Positions 3,505 to 16,765 of a stretch of 64,000 nt of DNA are shown here, piece by piece; the first letter of the stretch is position 1, and each line of letters begins with the position of its first letter. The translations under genes and the position numbers were made by a program. The stretch covers positions 2,082,467 through 2,146,466 of the forward strand of contig CBDDEI010000002.1 in assembly GCA_965226775.1 (NCBI GenBank), given 5' to 3'. Below the pieces are notes generated by a model. The model saw nothing but the letters and a program-made list of their open reading frames with translations, was not told the DNA's origin and ran no database searches. Source of the DNA: Dehalococcoidia bacterium. Lineage in GTDB: Bacteria > Chloroflexota > Dehalococcoidia > SHYD01.

Positions 3505-5067
3505 ATGCGGGCAATACTGAGTGTCTACGACAAGACCCAACTCCAGGAGCTGGCCGCTGGCCTTACTGCGCTGGGCGTTGAGCTTTTCAGCACTGGCGGC
3601 ACCAAGAAAGCCTTAGAGGACGCCCGCATCCCGGTGCGCGCAGTAGAAGACCTCACCGGTTTCCCTGAGATGATGGACGGCCGCGTCAAGACCCTGCATC
3701 CTGCGGTCCACGGCGGCATTCTGGCCCGCAGAGACGTCCCGCAGGACATGGCCCAACTGCAGCAACACGGCTTTGGCCCCCTGGACATGGTGGTGGGCAA
3801 CCTCTATCCCTTCGTGGCTACCATTGCACAACCCGGCGTTGCGCTATCCGATGCGCTGGAGAACATCGACATCGGTGGGCCGACAATGCTGCGCGCGGCT
3901 GCCAAGAACCACCCCAGCGTGTGGGTAGTCACCGACCCCCAGGACTACGAGCCGGTGCTCGATGCGCTGAAGCAGGGCGAGAACGATGACAACCGCGCGT
4001 TCCGTCGCCGTCTTGCGGCTAAGGCCTTCCAGCACGTGGCCTACTACGATACGGTCATCGCCGGCTACCTGCGTGGCGAAGACGACCCGTTCCCCGAGGA
4101 GCTCACCCTGGCATACCAGCGCAAACAAACGCTCCGCTATGGCGAGAACCCCCACCAGAAGGGTGCGCTCTACCAGGAGCCGCTGATTGGGTTCAGCAGC
4201 CTGGTGGTCGGCGAGCGGCTCATGGGGCAGCAGCCCTCCCTCTGCAATTTCTACGACCTCTCTGCGGCGCTGGAGACGGTGCGAGACCATCCCGACCGCG
4301 CTGCGGCGGTGGTGATTAAGCACGCCACACCCAGCGGCTTCGCCTTTGGCGCAACACCGGCGGAGGCGCTGCAGAAGGCCATCCATGCGGATGCTACCTC
4401 TGCCTTCGGCGGGATCATCGGCCTCAACAGGATGCTGGACGTAGACACCGCCCAGGTAGTGGCCGCGTTCAAAGAGGACGAAGCATCCAACATTGATGCT
4501 ATCGTCGCGCCAGGCATCGAACCGGAGGCCAAGGAGATCCTGGAAAAGACCCGCCGGCGCACCATCCTCTACTCCGTGCCCGCCATTCAGCGGCTTCCCG
4601 CTGGCTATCGAAACCTGAAGCAGATCCCAGGCGGGCTGCTCTATCAAGAGGCGGACGTGCTGCCCATCCAGACCACGGACTGGAAGGTGGTCACAGAGGT
4701 AGCGCCCACGCCTGAGCAGATGGAGGCCATGCAAGAAGCATGGTCGCTGCTGCGGCGCATTCGTTCCAACACTATCCTCATCTGGAACGGCACGGAGAAG
4801 GTTACGCTGGGCATCGGCAGCGGGCAGGTGAGCCGCGTGGGTGCGGCCAAGCTCGCGCTGCAGCAGGCGGGAGAGCGTGCCAAGGGCGCTGTCCTGGCCT
4901 CGGACAGCTTCTTCCCCTTCCAGGACTCGGTAGAGCTTGCGGCCAGCTATGGCATCGCTGCGGTGGTGCAGCAAGGCGGCTCAATTAACGACGGTGCATC
5001 CATAGCCGCCGCAAACGCCGCCGGCATCCCCATGGTACTCACAGGCCAGCGCGCCTTCTGGCACTAG
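3505..5067 (+). CDS. purH: Bifunctional AICAR transformylase / IMP cyclohydrolase
   Basis: MRAILSVYDKT...GGTKKAL MGS-like N-domain plus AICARFT domain. Length is 520 aa. Confidence 0.95.
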   Translation: MRAILSVYDKTQLQELAAGLTALGVELFSTGGTKKALEDARIPVRAVEDLTGFPEMMDGRVKTLHPAVHGGILARRDVPQDMAQLQQHGFGPLDMVVGNLYPFVATIAQPGVALSDALENIDIGGPTMLRAAAKNHPSVWVVTDPQDYEPVLDALKQGENDDNRAFRRRLAAKAFQHVAYYDTVIAGYLRGEDDPFPEELTLAYQRKQTLRYGENPHQKGALYQEPLIGFSSLVVGERLMGQQPSLCNFYDLSAALETVRDHPDRAAAVVIKHATPSGFAFGATPAEALQKAIHADATSAFGGIIGLNRMLDVDTAQVVAAFKEDEASNIDAIVAPGIEPEAKEILEKTRRRTILYSVPAIQRLPAGYRNLKQIPGGLLYQEADVLPIQTTDWKVVTEVAPTPEQMEAMQEAWSLLRRIRSNTILIWNGTEKVTLGIGSGQVSRVGAAKLALQQAGERAKGAVLASDSFFPFQDSVELAASYGIAAVVQQGGSINDGASIAAANAAGIPMVLTGQRAFWH

Positions 5068-9179: not shown

Positions 9180-9214
9180 ACCTATGCGCCCGCTTCTAGC
9201 GGGCACCATTGCGC

Positions 9215-9291
9215 GGTGGGCGTAGCCGAGTGGTTAAGGCGCCTGGTTGTGGCCCAGGAGAACGTGGGTTCGAACCCCACCGTCCACCCCA
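9215..9291 (+). tRNA. tRNA-His (anticodon GTG), with G-1 and encoded CCA
   Basis: Cloverleaf by hand: acceptor GTGGGCG/CGTCCAC, G-1 opposite C73, anticodon loop TTGTGGC, T-arm GTGGGTTCGAACCCCAC. Confidence 0.85.
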
Positions 9292-9350
9292 TTCTCCCCT
9301 AGAGAGTGCTCCTCCTACACAAACTTCCCCAACATCCCCAGCAACAAACA

Positions 9351-9383
9351 GCCGCCGCGAGCATGGCTCGCGGCGGCTTTGTT
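9351..9383. terminator. Bidirectional rho-independent terminator between tRNA-His (+) and the binding-protein gene (-)
   Basis: GCCGCCGCGAGC-atgg-CTCGCGGCGGC followed by TTTGTT. It is palindromic, with a T/A tract on both sides. Confidence 0.75.
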
Positions 9384-9431
9384 CTAGCGGTCTGATGAGG
9401 AGAGTAACCTCCTCTCAGCTGCGCCTAGTTG

Positions 9432-11192
9432 CTATTTGTCTATCCATGCATTGATCGTTGAGTAGCCTTGATCCAGGTGCGCGGTATAGTTCTTCACGTA
9501 AGGATGCCAGAAGAACGCATTAGGAGACCGGGCAATGGCAATTCCAAATGCCTCCTGATTGATGTAGGTGATTGCCTCTTTCATGATCGCCTGACGCTTC
9601 GTCGGATCACCCTCTCGCCGCTGCGCCTCAATGAGCCCCTTGAGTTTGTCGTCTTTCACACTCGTGTAGTTAAGACGCTGGTCGGGGTAGTAGTATCCGT
9701 ACAGGCTGTAGTCCGCATCTGGGCGTGGGTACTCTCCAAACCAGTGCATCTCAAACAAGCCCTTCTTCCGGTCTCGAGAAACTTCTGCACGGGGCCGCAC
9801 ATCAAACTCTACTGTAATCCCCACCATTTTGAGTTGGGCTTGCAATAGCTGCGCAAGGGAGCGCTCTTGATCGGTCCCTAAGTCTGTCAACAACGCGTAT
9901 GTGAAGCCATTTGGATAGCCAGCTTCGGTAAGGAGTTGCTTCGCCTTTTCCCGGTCAAAGGGCTGTAATGCCTTTATCTCTTCTTGCGTAAAGATGTCCA
10001 CAAAGGTGTTGGCGCCCGCCAACCCATACGTTCCGCCGCCTATAACCTTAATGAATTCATCGCGATCGATGGCCAAGGAGATGGCCTTACGCACCAGCTG
10101 ACTTTGGAAGGGCTCAAACAGATAGTTCATCAGCACGTAGCGGGGGGTGCCGGGGAAATCGTGGCGGAGCGCCTCAGGGTTCTGAGCTGCCAAGTCCTTG
10201 ATCCCCTGGCCGCTGGACGAGTTCATGACATCTAGCTGTCGCGTTTGGAATGCCGCAAATGCGGTCGCATCCTCCGGCAACACCAGGTAGCGAATGTCGT
10301 CTAAGTAGATTGAGTCCGCATCCCTATAGGTGGGGTTTTTCGTGAATACCGCTCTGGTACCCTTTTGGGTATCCGCCTCACTGTGTTGGAAGGGGCCAGT
10401 ACCCACAATATTCGTGGAAAAGTCCCCCTCAAGCTTCAAGAGCTCTTTCGGGTAGATGGGGTTGAACGCGCTGCTCGCATAAATTAAGAACGGCGCGAAC
10501 CCATCCTCGAACTTGACCACTACGGTGTAGTTGTCCGGCGTTGTGATGCTCTCAAGTCCGGCCCACATGAACCCGTTCTGGCTGGCCTTAAGATCGGAGA
10601 AGTCACCGGTGCTGGAAGTATAGTGATAGCTCCACTTCACATCCGCAGCGGTGAGCTCACGGCCGTTAACGGGAGCTATGTTGGCATACTTCACGCCCTT
10701 CTGGAGGTAAAAGGTAAAGGTCTTGGCATCGGCTGAAACCTCCCACCTCTCCGCCAGCTCCGGCGCAACGGTCTTATCGAAGTAATTAATGTTCGGATAA
10801 GGTGTTACCACTTGCTGTAGGAGACTGTCGTATGCAAGTCGGATGCCGTTGACATTGTTGGAATTCTGCCCGTTTATCCGCATATTCCAGTCTGTCATGT
10901 CCGTGGTGTTCCGAATCCTGAGCGTACCCCCGGTCTTCGGCTTTCCCATTGCATCGCCCTCGGTCTTCGCCATTGCGTCGTCCGTCTTGGGCTTCGCCAT
11001 AGCGTCGCCGCTCTCGGTCTTCGCCATTGCGTCGTCCGTCTTGGGCTTCTCCATTGCATCGCTGCTCTCGGTCTTCGCCGTTGTAGCGCTGCTACTAGAC
11101 GCAGCTGGCTGTGCGGGCGCGGCGGGGGCCGCGCAGGCTAGCGCGATCATCATAGAAGCGATCACTAGATAAAACACTGGCTTGAAATACAT
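9432..11192 (-). CDS. ABC transporter substrate-binding lipoprotein, family 5 (DppA/OppA/NikA-like), copy A
   Basis: Likely start ATG at 11190-11192 with a GGAGGA RBS (MYFKPVFYLVIASMMIALAC lipoprotein signal). DAMAKPKT tandem repeats, then a family-5 binding-protein domain. ORF-track start 11219 is upstream and in frame. Confidence 0.85.
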   Translation of the reverse strand: MYFKPVFYLVIASMMIALACAAPAAPAQPAASSSSATTAKTESSDAMEKPKTDDAMAKTESGDAMAKPKTDDAMAKTEGDAMGKPKTGGTLRIRNTTDMTDWNMRINGQNSNNVNGIRLAYDSLLQQVVTPYPNINYFDKTVAPELAERWEVSADAKTFTFYLQKGVKYANIAPVNGRELTAADVKWSYHYTSSTGDFSDLKASQNGFMWAGLESITTPDNYTVVVKFEDGFAPFLIYASSAFNPIYPKELLKLEGDFSTNIVGTGPFQHSEADTQKGTRAVFTKNPTYRDADSIYLDDIRYLVLPEDATAFAAFQTRQLDVMNSSSGQGIKDLAAQNPEALRHDFPGTPRYVLMNYLFEPFQSQLVRKAISLAIDRDEFIKVIGGGTYGLAGANTFVDIFTQEEIKALQPFDREKAKQLLTEAGYPNGFTYALLTDLGTDQERSLAQLLQAQLKMVGITVEFDVRPRAEVSRDRKKGLFEMHWFGEYPRPDADYSLYGYYYPDQRLNYTSVKDDKLKGLIEAQRREGDPTKRQAIMKEAITYINQEAFGIAIARSPNAFFWHPYVKNYTAHLDQGYSTINAWIDK

Positions 11193-11302
11193 CAAGTTCC
11201 TCCTTGTTCTCGGGGACAACCCACTCTTCAGCCACTGGCAAGGCCGCGGCTAAAGGAACCGCAACGTTTGTCCCTTACGTTGTACTTGAGATGCTAGTGC
11301 AG

Positions 11303-11333
11303 ATACATGAGTAATTCATGACGTGTTCATGAG
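11303..11333 (-). promoter_or_regulatory. Three direct TCATGA(A) repeats at 11-bp phasing upstream of binding-protein gene A (candidate response-regulator operator)
   Basis: aCATGAg, TTCATGA, TTCATGA at 11304, 11315 and 11326. An AACGT-N9-ACGTT palindrome lies nearer the gene. The same pattern is conserved in copy B. Confidence 0.35.
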
Positions 11334-11360
11334 AATTATCACGATCGGGCGCCATTGCGC

Positions 11361-11436
11361 GGTGGCCGTAGCCGAGAGGTTAAGGCGCATGGTTGTGGCC
11401 TAGGAGAACGTGGGTTCGAATCTCACCGTCCACCCA
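11361..11436 (+). tRNA. tRNA-His(GTG)-like second copy, probable pseudo-tRNA
   Basis: Same anticodon loop, but a C5-U68 mismatch in the acceptor stem, an A-G mismatch in the anticodon stem, a D-loop change and no upstream promoter. Confidence 0.55.
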
Positions 11437-11498
11437 TTCTCCCCCTGAGAGTGCTTCTCCTGCACCAAGCTTCCCCAACATCCCCAGTAATATAGAAA

Positions 11499-11532
11499 GC
11501 CGCCGCGAGCATAGCTCGCGGCGGCTTTCTTC
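11499..11532. terminator. Duplicated bidirectional terminator hairpin
   Basis: GCCGCCGCGAGC-atag-CTCGCGGCGGC TTTCTTC. Confidence 0.7.
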
Positions 11533-11578
11533 TAGCGGTCTGACGAGGAGATTAACCTCCCCTCATCTGCGCCTAGTG

Positions 11579-13339
11579 CTATTTGTCTATCCATGCATTG
11601 ATTGCTGGGTAGCCTTGATCCAGGTGCGCAGAATAGTTCTTCACGTAAGGATGCCAGAAGAACGCATTGGGAGACCGGGCAATGGCAATGCCAAACGCCT
11701 CTGTATTGATGTAGGTGATTGCTTCCTTCATGATCGCCCGACGCTTCGTCGGATCACCCTCTCGTCGCTGCGCCTCAATGTACGTCTTCAGCTTATCGTC
11801 TTTCACACTCGTGTAGTTAAGACGCTGGTCGGGGTAGTAGTATCCGTACAGGCTGTAGTCCGCGTCTGGGCGACCGTACTCGCCGAACCAGTGCATCTCA
11901 AACAAGCCCTTCTTCCGGTCTCGAGAAACTTCTGCACGAGGCCGCACATCAAACTCTACTGTAATCCCCACCGTTTTGAGCTGGGCTTGCAAGAGCTGCG
12001 CAAGGGAGCGCTCTTGATCGGTCCCTAAGTCTGTCAACAATGCGAATGTGAAGCCATTCGGGTAGCCAGCTTCAGTAAGGAGACTCTTCGCCTTTTCCCG
12101 GTCAAAGGGCTGTAATGCCTTTACCTCTTCTTGCGTGAAGATGTCCACAAAGGTGTTGGCGCCCGCCAACCCATACGTTCCGCCGCCCATAACCGTAATG
12201 AATTCATCCCGATCGATGGCCAGGGAGACGGCCTGACGCACTAGCTGACTTTGGAAGGCAGGAAACTGATAGTTCATCAGTACGTAGCGGGGAGTGCCGG
12301 GGTAATCTTGGCGGAGCGCCTCAGGGTTCTGAGTTGCCAAGTCCTTGATCCCCTGGCCGCTGGACGAGTTCATGACGTCTAGCTGTCGCGTTTGGAATGC
12401 CGCAAATGCGGTCGCATCCTCCGGCAACACCAGGTAGCGAATGTCGTCTAAGTAGATTGAGTCCGCATCCCTATAGGTGGGGTTTTTCGTGAATACCGCT
12501 CTGGTACCCTTTTGGGTATCCGCGTCACTGTGTTGGAAGGGGCCAGTACCCACAATATTCGTGGAAAAATCCCCCTCAAGCTTCAAGAGCTCTTTCGGGT
12601 AGATGGGGTTGAACGCGCTGCTCGCATAAGTTAAGAACGGCGCGAACCCATCCTTGAACTTGACCACTACGGTGTAGTTGTCCGGCGTTGTGATGCTATC
12701 AAGCCCGGCCCACATGAACCCGTTCTGGCTGGCCTTAAGATCGGAGAAGTCACCGGTGCTGGAAGTATAGTGATAGCTCCACTTCGCGTCCGCAGCGGTA
12801 AGCTCACGGCCGTTAACGGGAGCTATGTTGGCATACTTCACGCCCTTCTGGAGGTAGAAGGTGAAGGTCTTGGCATCGGCTGAAACCTCCCACCTCTCTG
12901 CCAGCTCCGGCTCAATGGTCTTGTCAAAGTAGTTAATGTTCGGATGAGGTGTTTCCCTCTGCTTTAAGAGACTGTCGTATGCAACGCGGATGCCGTTGAC
13001 ATTGTTGGAATTCTGCCCGTTTATCCGCATATTCCAGTCTGTCATGTCCGTGGTGTTCCGAATCCTGAGCGTACCGCCAGTCTTCGGCTTCCCCATTGCA
13101 TCGCCCTCGGTCTTCGCCATTGCGTCGTCCGTCTTGGGCTTCGCCATTGCGTCGCCGCTCTCGGTCTTCGCCATTGCGTCGTCCGTCTTAGGCTTCTCCA
13201 TGGCATCGCTGCTCTCGGTCTTCGCCGTTGCAGCGCTGCTACTAGACGCAGCTGGCTGTGCGGGCGCGGCGGGCGCCGCGCAGGCTAGTGCGATCATCAT
13301 CGAAGCGATCACTAAATAAAACACTGGCTTATATTGCAT
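11579..13339 (-). CDS. ABC transporter substrate-binding lipoprotein, family 5, copy B (about 90% identical to copy A)
   Basis: Likely start ATG at 13337-13339 with a GGAGGT RBS (MQYKPVFYLVIASMMIALAC). Same architecture as copy A. Confidence 0.85.
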   Translation of the reverse strand: MQYKPVFYLVIASMMIALACAAPAAPAQPAASSSSAATAKTESSDAMEKPKTDDAMAKTESGDAMAKPKTDDAMAKTEGDAMGKPKTGGTLRIRNTTDMTDWNMRINGQNSNNVNGIRVAYDSLLKQRETPHPNINYFDKTIEPELAERWEVSADAKTFTFYLQKGVKYANIAPVNGRELTAADAKWSYHYTSSTGDFSDLKASQNGFMWAGLDSITTPDNYTVVVKFKDGFAPFLTYASSAFNPIYPKELLKLEGDFSTNIVGTGPFQHSDADTQKGTRAVFTKNPTYRDADSIYLDDIRYLVLPEDATAFAAFQTRQLDVMNSSSGQGIKDLATQNPEALRQDYPGTPRYVLMNYQFPAFQSQLVRQAVSLAIDRDEFITVMGGGTYGLAGANTFVDIFTQEEVKALQPFDREKAKSLLTEAGYPNGFTFALLTDLGTDQERSLAQLLQAQLKTVGITVEFDVRPRAEVSRDRKKGLFEMHWFGEYGRPDADYSLYGYYYPDQRLNYTSVKDDKLKTYIEAQRREGDPTKRRAIMKEAITYINTEAFGIAIARSPNAFFWHPYVKNYSAHLDQGYPAINAWIDK

Positions 13340-13457
13340 TAAGCACCTCCTAAGTTCTTGGGATAACCCACTCTTCAGCCACAGGCAAGGCCGCGGCTGA
13401 AGAAACCGCAACGTTTGTCCCTTACGTTTACGTTGTAATTGAGATGCTATTGCAGAA

Positions 13458-13485
13458 ATATGAGTAATTCATGATGGATTCATGA
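13458..13485 (-). promoter_or_regulatory. TCATGA(A) phased direct repeats upstream of binding-protein gene B
   Basis: aTATGAg, TTCATGA, TTCATGA at 11-bp spacing. An AACGT...ACGTT palindrome is also conserved. Confidence 0.35.
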
Positions 13486-13632
13486 GAAATAGTAAGAGCG
13501 GCACTTTACCACACTTAACCACGCCTACCTCACTATAGCGTCATTGGGAACTCATGCGGCCCTAATCTAATGACCTTACAGTCCTAGCACCTGTACTTAC
13601 GAGCAGCATAGAGTAAGAAGGAGGTAGCCACA

Positions 13633-15507
13633 ATGAGTACTAAGGCATGGCTAGTAGCCCTGTCCATCAGCGCACTGCTGGTAAGTGCCTGCACTGCGGC
13701 CACACCCGCGGCGCCCGCTGAAACCAGCGGGTCCACGAGCAGCGGCGCCAGTAGCAGCAGCGACACCAGTAGCAGCACCAGTGGTACGAGCGACACCAGC
13801 AGCAGCACCAGTGGGACCAGCGACACCAGCAGCAGCACGAGCACCACCAGCAGCCCTAGCGCGACTCCTGTCCCCGCTGCCAGCAGTAGCAGTAGCACGA
13901 CCAGCACCACGGGCAGCGGCGAAACCAAGAAGGAAACCGGCGAAGCCGCAAAAGCCGAACAGGTGATGAAAGACACCGCCGGCAGCTCGGACGTCGTATG
14001 TGAAGAAGGCAAGGAGTCCTGGCGCTCCCCCGGTCCCCCCGTCCGCGGCGGCAGCCTTGTCTGGGCTACTTCGCCCGTCAGCCATCTCGAGAGCGGCGGC
14101 GCGTTCCAGGTCTACAACAGCCTGCTCCAAGAGCGTAAGTGCTTCGTCACCGACCGCGTCATCGTCCCCAGTCTCGCGAAGTCCTGGGAGGTCTCCCCTA
14201 ACGGCTTGACCTGGACCTTGAAGCTCAACGACAACGTGAAGTGGCAGAATATGCCCCCGGTCAACGGCAGAGCCTTCGACTCCTCCGACGTGGCCTGGAT
14301 GATTGACTACCAGAAGGAAAAAGGACGCGAGCGCGTCTGGTGGGAACACGTCAATTACACCACCCCAGACAAGTACACCATCGTCCTGACCCTTACCCGC
14401 CCTGACCCCGACTTTGTCTACAAGCTGGGGGCCGGCGCTAACCTCATGAAAGCCAAAGAGGTCTTTGAGCAGGACGCCGGCTTCCGCAAAACCGCCGTCG
14501 GCACCGGCGCCTATATGGCGCATGACTGGAAGACCGGCCAAGGCGTCACCGGCGTTAAGAATCCCGACTACTGGGAGACGGGCGCAGACGGCAAGCCTCT
14601 CCCCTACCTCGATGAGATCAAGAAGGTAGCTTTCGGCGATATCGCCGCGGAGTTGGCCGCAATGCGGGCCGGACAAACGCACCATCCCGGCACCTTTGGC
14701 TTCCGCCCCGACATGCTGAAGATCCTACGAGATAGTGATCTGAAGCTGACCTTCTACGACATCCTCCCTCCCATCCATGGCGCCGTGTGGTTCGATACTA
14801 CTTCTGCGCCCTGGAACGATAAGCGGGTGCGCCAAGCCACCCTGAAGTCCATCGACCGGGAATCGCTCATCATCTCCTTGCAGGGCGGCGTTGTTCACTC
14901 GGGCTATGTACCCGGCCCCTTTACCGATGCGGCCTGGTCTGAAGCAAAGACGATTGAGAAGTTCGCTCAGGACATCCCTGCCGCCAAGAAGCTCTTGGCC
15001 GAAGCCGGCTACGACGGCAGTGGCCCCCCCGCCAAGATGACTACCACCGGCCAGTATGCCCAAGAAGCCGAAGTGGTCCAAAACTTGATGAAGAAAGCTG
15101 GCTTCAACGTGGAGCTCGAGGTCGCGCCTGACCGCTCCTGGACCACCACCATGCGGAAGTTGAAGTTCGAGATCGGCTGGGGCGTCGCGGGAGGCTCCAT
15201 CACAGAGTTCCCGGTCTACTACCTCTGCCAGCTGGTGACCGATAACCCTCTGAACACAACTCGGTACGGTGATGCCACCATCGATAACCTGTGCGGAACC
15301 CAGGCCGTTGAGCTAGACCCCGCAAAGCGCAAGGCTATCTGGGATCAGCTCCAGGACCACCTCTATGACGTAGTGCCTTACGTGCCCACGGTCGGCACCA
15401 TCTACGGCATGGCTTTGGCCTGCGAAGTCAAAAACTACAAGCGTGTCCACACCGGCCGCAATCCCTCCGGATTCGTCCGGGCCTGGCTCGACAAGACCGG
15501 CTGCTAA
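13633..15507 (+). CDS. ABC transporter substrate-binding lipoprotein, family 5, with a Ser/Thr-rich tether
   Basis: Strong AAGGAGG RBS. LLVSAC lipobox. The DTSSSTSGTS tandem repeat is followed by a family-5 binding-protein domain. Confidence 0.85.
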   Translation: MSTKAWLVALSISALLVSACTAATPAAPAETSGSTSSGASSSSDTSSSTSGTSDTSSSTSGTSDTSSSTSTTSSPSATPVPAASSSSSTTSTTGSGETKKETGEAAKAEQVMKDTAGSSDVVCEEGKESWRSPGPPVRGGSLVWATSPVSHLESGGAFQVYNSLLQERKCFVTDRVIVPSLAKSWEVSPNGLTWTLKLNDNVKWQNMPPVNGRAFDSSDVAWMIDYQKEKGRERVWWEHVNYTTPDKYTIVLTLTRPDPDFVYKLGAGANLMKAKEVFEQDAGFRKTAVGTGAYMAHDWKTGQGVTGVKNPDYWETGADGKPLPYLDEIKKVAFGDIAAELAAMRAGQTHHPGTFGFRPDMLKILRDSDLKLTFYDILPPIHGAVWFDTTSAPWNDKRVRQATLKSIDRESLIISLQGGVVHSGYVPGPFTDAAWSEAKTIEKFAQDIPAAKKLLAEAGYDGSGPPAKMTTTGQYAQEAEVVQNLMKKAGFNVELEVAPDRSWTTTMRKLKFEIGWGVAGGSITEFPVYYLCQLVTDNPLNTTRYGDATIDNLCGTQAVELDPAKRKAIWDQLQDHLYDVVPYVPTVGTIYGMALACEVKNYKRVHTGRNPSGFVRAWLDKTGC

Positions 15508-15621
15508 CACCTAGCTAACAGTCGTTTCTAATTAAATAGCCGGCATCAGCTGCATTGGCCAAATAAGCTTGGTTAATGCAGTTGATGTCGGCTTGCATCA
15601 GAACACGTACCGAGTGGAGCC

Positions 15622-16461
15622 ATGAATTCACCAGAGCCAGGAGAGTGGCTGACGGAGTTGCGGGCCCTTTACGATAACGCCTTCAGTTACGATTGGGACC
15701 GGCACGTTGACCAACTCAATAAGCGGTATAAATTACACGGCAGCAGTAAGTTGGGCCTGCTGGTGCGTGGTCAACCACCTGCATGGTTTAACGGCGATGT
15801 AGAAGCTATCCAGCCGGACCGCTGGGTGTTGGTTGTCTCGCTAAGTCATCAGCTACCTAGCCAAGACCTCGAAGACCATGTACCCGATAGTTCGTGGCAA
15901 GCGTGTTGTCACAACAATGCCAGCTCAGTCATACAATATCCGCAGTTTTTCACGCGAGCGGCAGAACTTGCTGCTACGGCCCTGGAACACGAACACCTAC
16001 AACCAGAGGGGCCTCAGCTAACTGCGAAGGACCTAGTGTTTACCCAAATGTGTCCCTATACCTTCGGACGATTTGAGCCGCCTTTAAGCACAATCAGGAC
16101 AGTGGTAAGACGCGATATAGGCTGTCTTACCGCCGCATCAGTCGGGAGAATCCTCGTAGAGAAGGCCAGGCCCAAACTCATACTCGTCAACGGTAGTCCT
16201 ACCGTGCTTGAGTTTGACGCCATCTACGGCAGCAACCTTTCCTGGGAGGAAAAGCAGTACCCTTCAGAGAGCCACCCGCACCTAAAGCTATGGCACAGGG
16301 AGGGGTATTGGAAAACAGAGCAGGGCGCTATACCAGTAGTAGGAATCCCTCTCTTGGGCACCCAAGGAAGCCATGACTCTGCACTTGAACGCAAACAGCT
16401 GAACGCAGCAATACGAGAACTAGTTGCCTATCCGGTTGCTGCCTCCAACCTTAGCCCGTAG
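15622..16461 (+). CDS. Hypothetical protein in a compositionally atypical (low-GC) segment
   Basis: 279-aa ORF. By eye the GC is about 50% against about 63% in the flanks. No confidently recognisable domain. Confidence 0.55.
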   Translation: MNSPEPGEWLTELRALYDNAFSYDWDRHVDQLNKRYKLHGSSKLGLLVRGQPPAWFNGDVEAIQPDRWVLVVSLSHQLPSQDLEDHVPDSSWQACCHNNASSVIQYPQFFTRAAELAATALEHEHLQPEGPQLTAKDLVFTQMCPYTFGRFEPPLSTIRTVVRRDIGCLTAASVGRILVEKARPKLILVNGSPTVLEFDAIYGSNLSWEEKQYPSESHPHLKLWHREGYWKTEQGAIPVVGIPLLGTQGSHDSALERKQLNAAIRELVAYPVAASNLSP

Positions 16462-16587
16462 CATCTGCTTCCATACACCACCTACGGCGTAAACCCCTTC
16501 TGTGCTGGCCGAGCTGGCAGCAGCCTCAAGTTGCTGCTCAGACGAGCACCATACTAGCCGCTCAGTCTGCTACAATTTATTCGCCGT

Positions 16588-16663
16588 GCGCCCGTAGCTC
16601 AACGGATAGAGCATCAGACTTCGGATCTGAGGGTTGGGGGTTCGAGTCCCTCCGGGCGTACCA
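16588..16663 (+). tRNA. tRNA-Arg (anticodon TCG)
   Basis: Acceptor GCGCCCG/CGGGCGT (G1-U72), D-arm GCTCAACGGATAGAGC, anticodon loop CTTCGGA, T-loop TTCGAGT, CCA encoded. Confidence 0.8.
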
Positions 16664-16765
16664 TCTCTCTCTTGCTGACAACAGTGTCAAGCAGAGCTTG
16701 CAAGCGAACAAAAAAGGGGCCAGCCGTATAGGCTGGCCCCTTGCTCGTGTAGCGTCTAAAGATGG

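Follow-up and report, generated by a model that had tools for sequence, protein, structure and literature searches.

A uracil-DNA-glycosylase-fold protein with a remodelled pocket in Dehalococcoidia, from an undescribed family with a probable remote relationship to Brig1

The gene at the locus and the fold of its product

The 64,000-nt stretch of contig CBDDEI010000002.1 from a Dehalococcoidia bacterium that was analysed here, termed the window, carries at positions 15622–16461 of the plus strand a gene for a 279-residue protein with the fold of the uracil-DNA glycosylase (UDG) superfamily. The protein belongs to an undescribed family that appears to be a remote sister of the anti-phage DNA glycosylase Brig1, and among the aligned sequences its lineage is the only one in the family in which both residues essential in Brig proteins are replaced. 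The open reading frame (ORF) of 279 codons begins with ATG, with GGAG upstream. A tRNA-Arg gene (anticodon TCG; ARAGORN) at 16588–16663 of the plus strand starts 127 nt 3′ of the ORF, so the Brig-like gene is situated on the 5′ side of the tRNA and not at its 3′ end. Both the ORF and its tRNA neighbour had been named in a preliminary description made from the letters of the window, and both are borne out.

The composition of the gene is atypical. The GC content is 53.3% in the ORF and 53.0% in the interval 15510–16587, against a window mean of 60.4%; the values of about 50% and about 63% given in the preliminary description were right in direction and too far apart. The 10–20 kb stretch of the window is relatively AT-rich throughout (55–58% GC). 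In the sliding-window and codon-usage analysis that had been proposed as a check, the ORF is an outlier located within the lowest 3.3% of same-size windows. Among the 59 genes of the window, it has the lowest GC at third codon positions (GC3; 0.548, mean 0.728, standard deviation 0.056, z −3.2), the second-lowest GC and the third-worst synonymous-codon fit. Because GC3 is ordinary in both flanking genes (0.78 and 0.73), the anomaly is limited to a single gene.

An AlphaFold model built with four sequences is unusable, with a predicted local distance difference test (pLDDT) of 50; with 47 family sequences the pLDDT reaches 87.6 and the predicted template-modelling score (pTM) 0.89. In structure comparison with solved UDGs, the window protein has the α/β/α fold of the UDG superfamily with a central four-stranded parallel sheet, constituted by residues 69–73, 138–142, 186–190 and 235–242, and a hairpin at residues 206–232. 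The top structural matches are all UDG-fold, and a viral structure library gives weak UDG-like matches only. The earlier guess of a divergent UDG-superfamily protein, for which structure prediction had been suggested as a check, is upheld as regards the fold; the likeness to family 4 that came with it is not, as neither GE[AG]PG nor HPS nor the 4Fe-4S cysteines are present.

The family consensus reads G.PPxWFNGD.EA..PG.WVLVxSLN[PH] ... WY..FF.PLVRLA ... FVELCPYAS ... PALxLVNG ... (hairpin) ... PVxGFPFLR...HNS, and its segments can be followed along the plus strand. PPAWFNGD (15775–15798, codons 52–59) is a family-specific N-terminal motif situated before the core sheet and kept in the window protein. 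In the 47-sequence alignment, from which the first residue counts derive, P53 and F56 are each conserved in 45/47 and G58 in 47/47; F56 is found in 100/113 of the larger alignment, in which 166 family sequences are aligned to the family hidden Markov model (HMM). VLVVSLSHQ (15826–15852, codons 69–77) includes strand β1 and the motif-A position. QFF (15943–15951, codons 108–110), also kept, places an aromatic pair on the pocket-lining helix; position 109 is Phe in 43/47, and 75 Phe plus 14 Tyr of 99 in the larger alignment. Strand β2 and the acid motif (consensus FVELCPYAS) are formed by LVFTQMCPYTF (16033–16065, codons 138–148), and core strand β3 with an invariant Gly by LILVNG (16177–16194, codons 186–191; N190 43/47, G191 47/47). 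The β-hairpin (16237–16317, codons 206–232), with strands 206–214 and 222–232, is inserted between core strands. The last core strand and the H251-D252-S253 loop (16324–16380, codons 235–253) make up a motif-B-like segment with the consensus H-N-S, and, judging by the fold, this loop probably sits where UDGs have motif B and the intercalation loop.

Compared with the canonical UDG families 1–6 and UdgX (PF03167), in which motif A is GQDPY, GINPG or GE[AG]PG, the family has SLN[PH]; it also possesses an extra N-terminal helical segment, PPxWFNGD and the β-hairpin insert, and lacks HPS and the Fe-S cluster. The window protein has no match to Pfam UDG PF03167 even at E ≤ 10, and one of the 47 members matches below threshold (E 0.045). 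The family 4 motif A GE[AG]PG is missing; SLSHQ follows strand β1 instead. Motif B, HPS[PA], is likewise missing after the last strand, where the window protein has H251-D252-S253 and His occurs in 65/100 members. Cys is present in at least 25% of members in one column only (C144, 34/47), so no 4Fe-4S cluster is formed. The motif assignments made earlier by eye have to be replaced: GQPP, taken for motif A, precedes the core sheet; HQLPSQ was wrongly mapped to the CRPP motif; and ILVNGSPT, taken for the IVPLG/HPSP region, belongs with strand 3 (LILVNG), the motif-B-like loop being H-D-S.

The family, its relationship to Brig1 and the remodelled pocket

With the single window protein, searches of Pfam, NCBIfam, PHROGs, PADLOC and the PDB sequences give no match, and a PDB profile search with the 47-sequence alignment gives chance matches only. 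A word-indexed search of 5.8 billion clusters finds only three relatives. The exhaustive profile search of 1.84 billion representatives finds 147 with E < 1e-3, including 59 with E < 1e-30, where the family size of about 147 is a number of clusters at 50% identity. By these searches the family is small and unannotated, and none of Pfam, NCBIfam, PADLOC and PHROG recognises it convincingly. Its phyletic patchiness is extreme, and the range from 93% down to about 41% identity is empty. A scan of named genomes, limited to a pattern built on the 12 closest sequences, finds nine loci, all in Chloroflexota (Dehalococcoidia, Thermomicrobiales and Chloroflexia). In addition, a divergent branch (P0148 and P0150–P0166), with about 18–30% identity to the window protein, comes from marine metagenomes and includes a Candidatus Poseidoniales archaeon, on 29 contigs up to 44 kb.

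Most members have 260–290 residues; a few are extended at the C or N terminus. C-terminal extensions of 130–160 residues, of two different kinds, are present in P0002 (L003, 886–2184), P0004, P0008 and P0011. By eye, the P0002 extension resembles an EVE/PUA-type modified-base reader, an identity backed by neither Pfam nor PDB; if the C-terminal extensions were modified-base readers, a role of the family on modified DNA would gain support.

Brig1 is an anti-phage α-glucosyl-5-hydroxymethylcytosine (5hmC) DNA glycosylase (Hossain et al., Nature 2024, PMC11078745). Its sequence was taken from the supplement of that paper with one residue restored from the DNA, and the numbering of Y121, N145 and E147 agrees with the publication. 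Aligned with hhalign, the family matches the Brig1 profile with 94.1% probability (E 1.3e-7, score 60.3, 120 columns); 20 column-shuffled controls stay at or below a score of 18.0 and a probability of 0.4%, and with the alignment reversed the score is 14.1. Reciprocally, a Brig1 HMM matches several family members of a 167-sequence set, down to E 1.7e-5. PPxWFNGD is in register with PEP[YW]xGD, SLNP with GLNPG and CPYAS with YPWHS; at the level of residues, the pairs (family/Brig1) are F56/W53, N75/N72, F109-F110/Y121-W122 and E142/E147. The family is thereby, with high profile probability, placed as a remote sister of Brig1. The possibility that it is Brig1 proper was rejected: direct searches are not significant (phmmer in the set of 166, E at least 0.008; hmmsearch of the family profile against Brig1), the 54 homologues of Brig1 and the family have zero shared members, and the sisterhood exists at the profile level only.

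The two families resemble each other in build. Brig1, like the family, is a single-domain protein of about 260–280 residues with the UDG-superfamily fold, outside Pfam UDG (PMC11078745). The elements follow in the same order, with N-terminal helices, PxP[WYF]xGD, 'LNP' after strand 1, the aromatic pair on the pocket helix, and then an acid and xP[YW]xS ending strand 2. Both are distributed sporadically, sometimes in defence or mobile contexts, and both have atypical composition. Brig1 is found mainly in Actinobacteria and Brig2 homologues mainly in Pseudomonadota and Bacillota, whereas the named genomes of the family belong to Chloroflexota. Brig1 needs its Asn and Glu, E147Q and E147A being inactive, and Y121A is dead (PMC11078745), whereas the window protein is without both the Asn and the Glu.

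The function of the pocket residues is best seen in Brig3, an anti-phage 5hmC DNA glycosylase homologous to Brig1 for which crystal structures exist (bioRxiv 2026, PMC13160076). N50 of motif A holds Mg2+/water at C1′, and N50A is dead with defence abolished. D127 is the essential acid and acts as the general base; activity is lost in both D127A and D127N, the latter holding the flipped substrate trapped. The base cage is formed by F31 (base-stacking), W100, F101 and H125, and W100A is dead. R197 on the β4–β5 hairpin loop binds the DNA backbone and N225 acts as the wedge, R197A and N225A both being dead; Brig1 Q81, W122 and position 147 are paired with Brig3 E55, W100 and 127 (PMC13160076). Through the alignment with Brig1, continued to Brig3 by the nearly constant numbering offset, N75 would then be equivalent to Brig1 N72 and Brig3 N50, E142 to Brig1 E147 and Brig3 D127, and the pair F109-F110 to Brig1 Y121/W122 and Brig3 W100/F101; F56 would be equivalent to Brig3 F31 from the Brig1–Brig3 numbering offset of 22. 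Position 221, outside the alignment, may be equivalent to Brig3 R197 from topology alone, and likening the loop of position 252 to the N225 wedge is speculative. The six-strand topology of Brig3 with its β4–β5 hairpin is also seen in the model of the window protein. Brig3 is encoded in an operon with the partner BapA, whereas the window gene is solitary.

Brig2 and integron-borne UDG-like defence proteins have the UDG fold with at most 20% identity to Brig1 (bioRxiv 10.1101/2025.10.29.685425). Brig2-type proteins, identified by structure, act on modified thymidines and are encoded in AT-rich regions associated with mobile elements, and many divergent UDG-like clades act in defence (bioRxiv 10.1101/2025.10.29.685425).

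In the lineage of the window, five conserved positions of the family are changed. Position 75 (codon 15844–15846, AGT), which is Asn in 115/115 other members, is Ser. Position 142 (16045–16047, CAA), universally acidic in the 108 others (88 Glu and 20 Asp), is Gln. The near-invariant Ser of position 148 (107/110 others) is replaced by Phe (16063–16065, TTC), the usually basic residue of position 221 in the hairpin loop (69 Lys and 16 Arg, 85/107) by Leu (16282–16284, CTA), and the near-invariant Asn of position 252 (88/98) by Asp (16375–16377, GAC). Four of the five substitutions are one base change away from a codon for the family residue, and K221L needs two. Both the Brig motif-A Asn (Brig1 N72/Brig3 N50) and the Brig strand-2 acid (Brig1 E147/Brig3 D127) are missing in the window protein, which naturally has an amide, Gln142, at the D127 position of Brig3 and a non-Asn residue, Ser75, at the N50 position, for which N50A was tested. 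Of the 29 most conserved columns, 25 are unchanged in the lineage, which retains the aromatic cage of F56, F109, F110 and Y146 together with H251; F56, F109 and F110 are aligned in register with the aromatic cage of the Brig proteins.

Two related genomes have an orthologue at this position: L001 (a metagenome contig; 97% amino-acid identity) and L004 (OZ244809.1, a complete Dehalococcoidia chromosome assembled from a metagenome; 93%). All five substitutions are common to the window protein, P0001 (97%) and the L004 orthologue. Over the three genomes, the ratio of nonsynonymous to synonymous substitution rates (dN/dS) is 0.26, significantly below 1 (p = 1.3e-4), with 0.03–0.32 in the neighbouring genes; against the closest genome it is 0.52, a value that stands on 11 changes only and is not significant. 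Frameshifts are absent in the three orthologues, and the L004 orthologue stops 10 codons early, within the low-confidence tail. From the selection, the intact frame and the kept columns, the product is therefore a selected protein with a remodelled pocket and not an obvious pseudogene.

Origin of the gene and its genomic surroundings

The region is collinear in the window, L001 and L004, and the tRNA-Arg is arranged alike in L004. The synonymous divergence (dS) between the window and the related genomes is 0.12 both in the Brig-like gene and in the flanking genes. As the dS equals that of the neighbours and the position is shared, any acquisition is older than the divergence of the three genomes, and acquisition of the gene is not recent. 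The preliminary description had read the locus as horizontally acquired DNA; the atypical composition of the single gene fits that reading, no insertion scar is visible, and any such acquisition would be old. A search for flanking direct repeats and a duplicated tRNA fragment at the locus saw none, and no integrase is present around the gene. A tRNA-targeted genomic island was rejected as an explanation, with no integrase, the gene 5′ of the tRNA-Arg, and neither a tRNA-derived nor another flanking repeat; the tRNA-Arg is an adjoining landmark and not a demonstrated integration site. The comparison with relatives proposed earlier finds the gene present at the same place in L001 and L004; no empty site was found in remoter relatives, whose metagenome contigs, with orthologues of the flanking hydrolase at 60–86%, are too short or have lost synteny. 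Viral contigs yielded no member of the family, and a phage origin therefore lacks support.

In an all-against-all neighbour comparison across 11 family loci, no consistent adjacent gene or operon partner is found. Defence or mobile neighbours are present at four of 10 independent loci (L002, L005, L008 and L010). L005 has a BglII-type endonuclease, a tyrosine integrase and a Shedu fragment, and L002 (1–13184, a metagenome contig) has GIY-YIG_3, DUF6884, HNH-like, DUF2130, DUF3825 and Shedu (SduA_C) neighbours. PIN toxins flank the family gene on both sides in L008, a DprA/SLOG gene and an AbiEi antitoxin lie nearby in L010, and in L011 the family gene follows an SbcC gene. The neighbours in the window are binding-protein, thioredoxin-like and hydrolase genes. 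A tRNA or tmRNA adjoins the family gene in three independent loci, and GC3 is below that of the neighbours in 7/10 loci, which amounts to a tendency and not a rule, so a systematic family-wide deficit was rejected. The low GC3 and the tRNA adjacency resemble the AT-rich, mobile-element-associated siting of Brig2 homologues. As a separate observation, L002 as a whole looks like a defence or mobile island of mostly uncharacterised genes.

Upstream of the Brig-like gene, in the spacer that separates it from the binding-protein gene, the plus strand carries at 15538–15593 a long hairpin (stem of 25 bp; RNA fold −43.1 kcal/mol, z −9.0), which is not followed by a U-tract and exists as a single copy in the window. 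It is conserved in L001 and L004, where two G·U pairs become G-C, and is probably a terminator or insulator between two transcription units; it may also be a regulatory element. Another hairpin, GC-rich and with a perfect stem of 12 bp, stands at 16714–16742, between the tRNA-Arg and the thioredoxin-like gene that converges on it. On the minus strand a run of T follows this hairpin, which is probably the terminator of the minus-strand gene and may be bidirectional.

Farther upstream, a tandem duplication (9201–11335 and 11346–13488) repeats a unit of an SBP_bac_5 lipoprotein gene and a tRNA-His(GTG), with the tRNA copies at 9216–9291 and 11362–11435. Each tandem copy is about 91–94% identical to the other copy's counterpart in L001 and L004, and one L004 tRNA-His copy (3790–3864) is defective by ARAGORN ('tRNA-???'). 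Three paralogous substrate-binding lipoproteins are encoded at 9432–11219 (minus strand), 11579–13411 (minus strand) and 13633–15507 (plus strand). After the signal peptide they have long repetitive linkers rich in Ser, Thr, Asp and Lys, for example TSSSTSGTSDTSSSTSGTSDTSSS and KTESGDAMAKPKTDDAMAKTE, which produce spurious long ORFs in other frames. About 3.2 kb of L004 (12189–15416) is missing from the window at about 19804, an indel between close relatives situated 3 kb from the Brig-like gene.

Proposed base excision and possible present role of the window protein

The fold, the family membership, the remote homology to Brig1, the unique substitutions, the purifying selection and the composition are directly supported. 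We give roughly even chances to an explanation by analogy in which the family performs Brig-type base excision on modified pyrimidines of foreign DNA, and the window protein is a non-excising derivative with a binding or sensing role. Typical members keep the Brig pocket, including the aromatic residue of PPxWFNGD, the Asn of SLN[PH], the two helix aromatics, the strand-2 Glu/Asp, the basic residue of the hairpin and the H-N-S loop that follows the final strand. If they work as Brig1 and Brig3 do, they would flip a modified pyrimidine out of the DNA and hydrolyse its glycosidic bond, and the abasic sites produced would block the replication of modified-DNA phages. The window lineage, represented by three genomes of one Dehalococcoidia species group, would have gained the gene horizontally before their divergence. 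The replacement of Asn75 by Ser and Glu142 by Gln, together with Ser148 by Phe, Lys221 by Leu and Asn252 by Asp, would have followed this acquisition, while the fold, the aromatic cage and the open frame would have been retained under purifying selection. The window protein would no longer excise bases by the Brig mechanism, and probably persists in a role without excision, be it the binding or sensing of a flipped or modified base or something else. Substrate class, loss of catalysis and present role are what we infer here from the characterised Brig proteins.

Several points weigh against this explanation. The match to the Brig1 profile is limited to residues 23–152, approximately the N-terminal 55%, and the C-terminal half is unalignable, with GxAGPP in Brig1 versus H-N-S in the family; as this half is unaligned, the family is a sister of Brig1 and not Brig1 proper. 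The roles of the Brig3 residues are passed on through Brig1 numbering with a nearly constant offset (about 22), and the loss of activity is deduced from mutants of other proteins, Brig1 and Brig3. Approximately half of the family contexts, including that of the window, are ordinary housekeeping genes, and the window protein itself has no PADLOC or PHROG match. Furthermore, the set of Q142, H251 and D252 could still be catalytic, because UDG-superfamily enzymes are known to relocate catalytic residues between motifs (PMC5387724).

This last point leads to the strongest alternative, which we nevertheless regard as rather unlikely, that of an active DNA glycosylase with shifted specificity. Gln142 would read a keto-pyrimidine, namely a modified base of the uracil or thymine type and not of the cytosine type, with His251 stabilising the leaving group and the task of activation passing to the new Asp252 or to a Ser75-bound water. 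The five changes look coordinated, an acid being lost by E142Q and another gained in the neighbouring pocket loop by N252D; the three genomes share all five as fixed changes, in a gene under purifying selection, and F56, F109, F110, Y146 and H251 are retained. Precedents exist in family 4 UDGs, which employ an Asn after strand 2 together with a motif-2 His (PMC5387724), and in Brig2, a UDG-like defence enzyme targeting thymidine derivatives (bioRxiv 10.1101/2025.10.29.685425). Gln142 is an amide, as is the uracil-reading Asn of canonical UDGs. In human UNG, the N204D exchange, an Asn-to-Asp change at what we take to be the equivalent site, presumably shifts the specificity from uracil to cytosine. 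Against these stands the fact that the equivalent single substitutions Brig1 E147Q, Brig3 D127N and Brig3 N50A are all dead. In addition, the DNA-contacting basic residue of the hairpin is also lost (K221L), an Asp in a loop approaching the DNA is electrostatically unfavourable, and the combination is seen in no other of more than 100 family members.

The loss of five near-invariant residues could also mark a decaying relic, a former Brig-like glycosylase heading for a pseudogene, to which the poor codon usage, the non-significant dN/dS of 0.52 on 11 changes and the early L004 stop would fit. This is improbable, since the frame is intact in three genomes about 0.12 apart in dS, the dN/dS of 0.26 (p = 1.3e-4) falls inside the range of the neighbours, the 25 of 29 most conserved positions are kept and the L004 stop trims the low-confidence tail only. 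A likeness at the level of the fold only, in which the protein would have a target other than DNA and might, for instance, hydrolyse a nucleotide or small molecule with an α/β core of the flavodoxin-like or MogA-like kind, is very improbable: the top structural matches are all UDG-fold, the Brig1 profile homology has the pocket motifs in register, and some family loci adjoin DNA-acting genes (restriction endonuclease, SbcC, DprA, GIY-YIG and HNH). Least credible of all is an ordinary housekeeping family 4-like UDG repairing deaminated cytosine, given no Pfam UDG or NCBIfam match, no GE[AG]PG, HPS or 4Fe-4S cysteines, an extremely patchy distribution, the atypical composition and a profile nearer to Brig1.

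Within the explanation by Brig-type excision and its non-excising derivative, a bolder and only tentative proposal, again by analogy, is that a dead Brig-like glycosylase was exapted as a non-cutting blocker or sensor of modified DNA, and that its parent family is a third Brig branch. If true, base flipping would continue in the exapted protein despite the loss of the Asn/Glu pair, the hairpin Lys and the loop Asn, a modified base being kept in the intact cage as in the engineered Brig3 D127N, and the protein would act, for instance, as a stoichiometric blocker or sensor of modified DNA, of a phage or its own, in the Dehalococcoidia host. The parent family would be an unrecognised branch of defence glycosylases, borne by Chloroflexota and marine archaea, with a motif-B chemistry (H-N-S) peculiar to it.

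Base-excision defence is a very recent subject, with Brig1 described in 2024, Brig2 in 2025 and Brig3 in 2026, and its known members came from functional screens or integron structure searches. The gene in the window is not to be labelled as a uracil-DNA glycosylase in annotation. As the sole lineage among more than 100 with both essential residues replaced, and yet selected, the copy in the window is a natural experiment, which poses the question of whether UDG-fold defence enzymes are convertible to non-cutting readers of modified bases or whether catalysis is rebuilt with other residues. A new family in poorly studied phyla, with Brig pocket elements and a different C-terminal motif, suggests that the substrates and hosts of such defence are likely to be wider.

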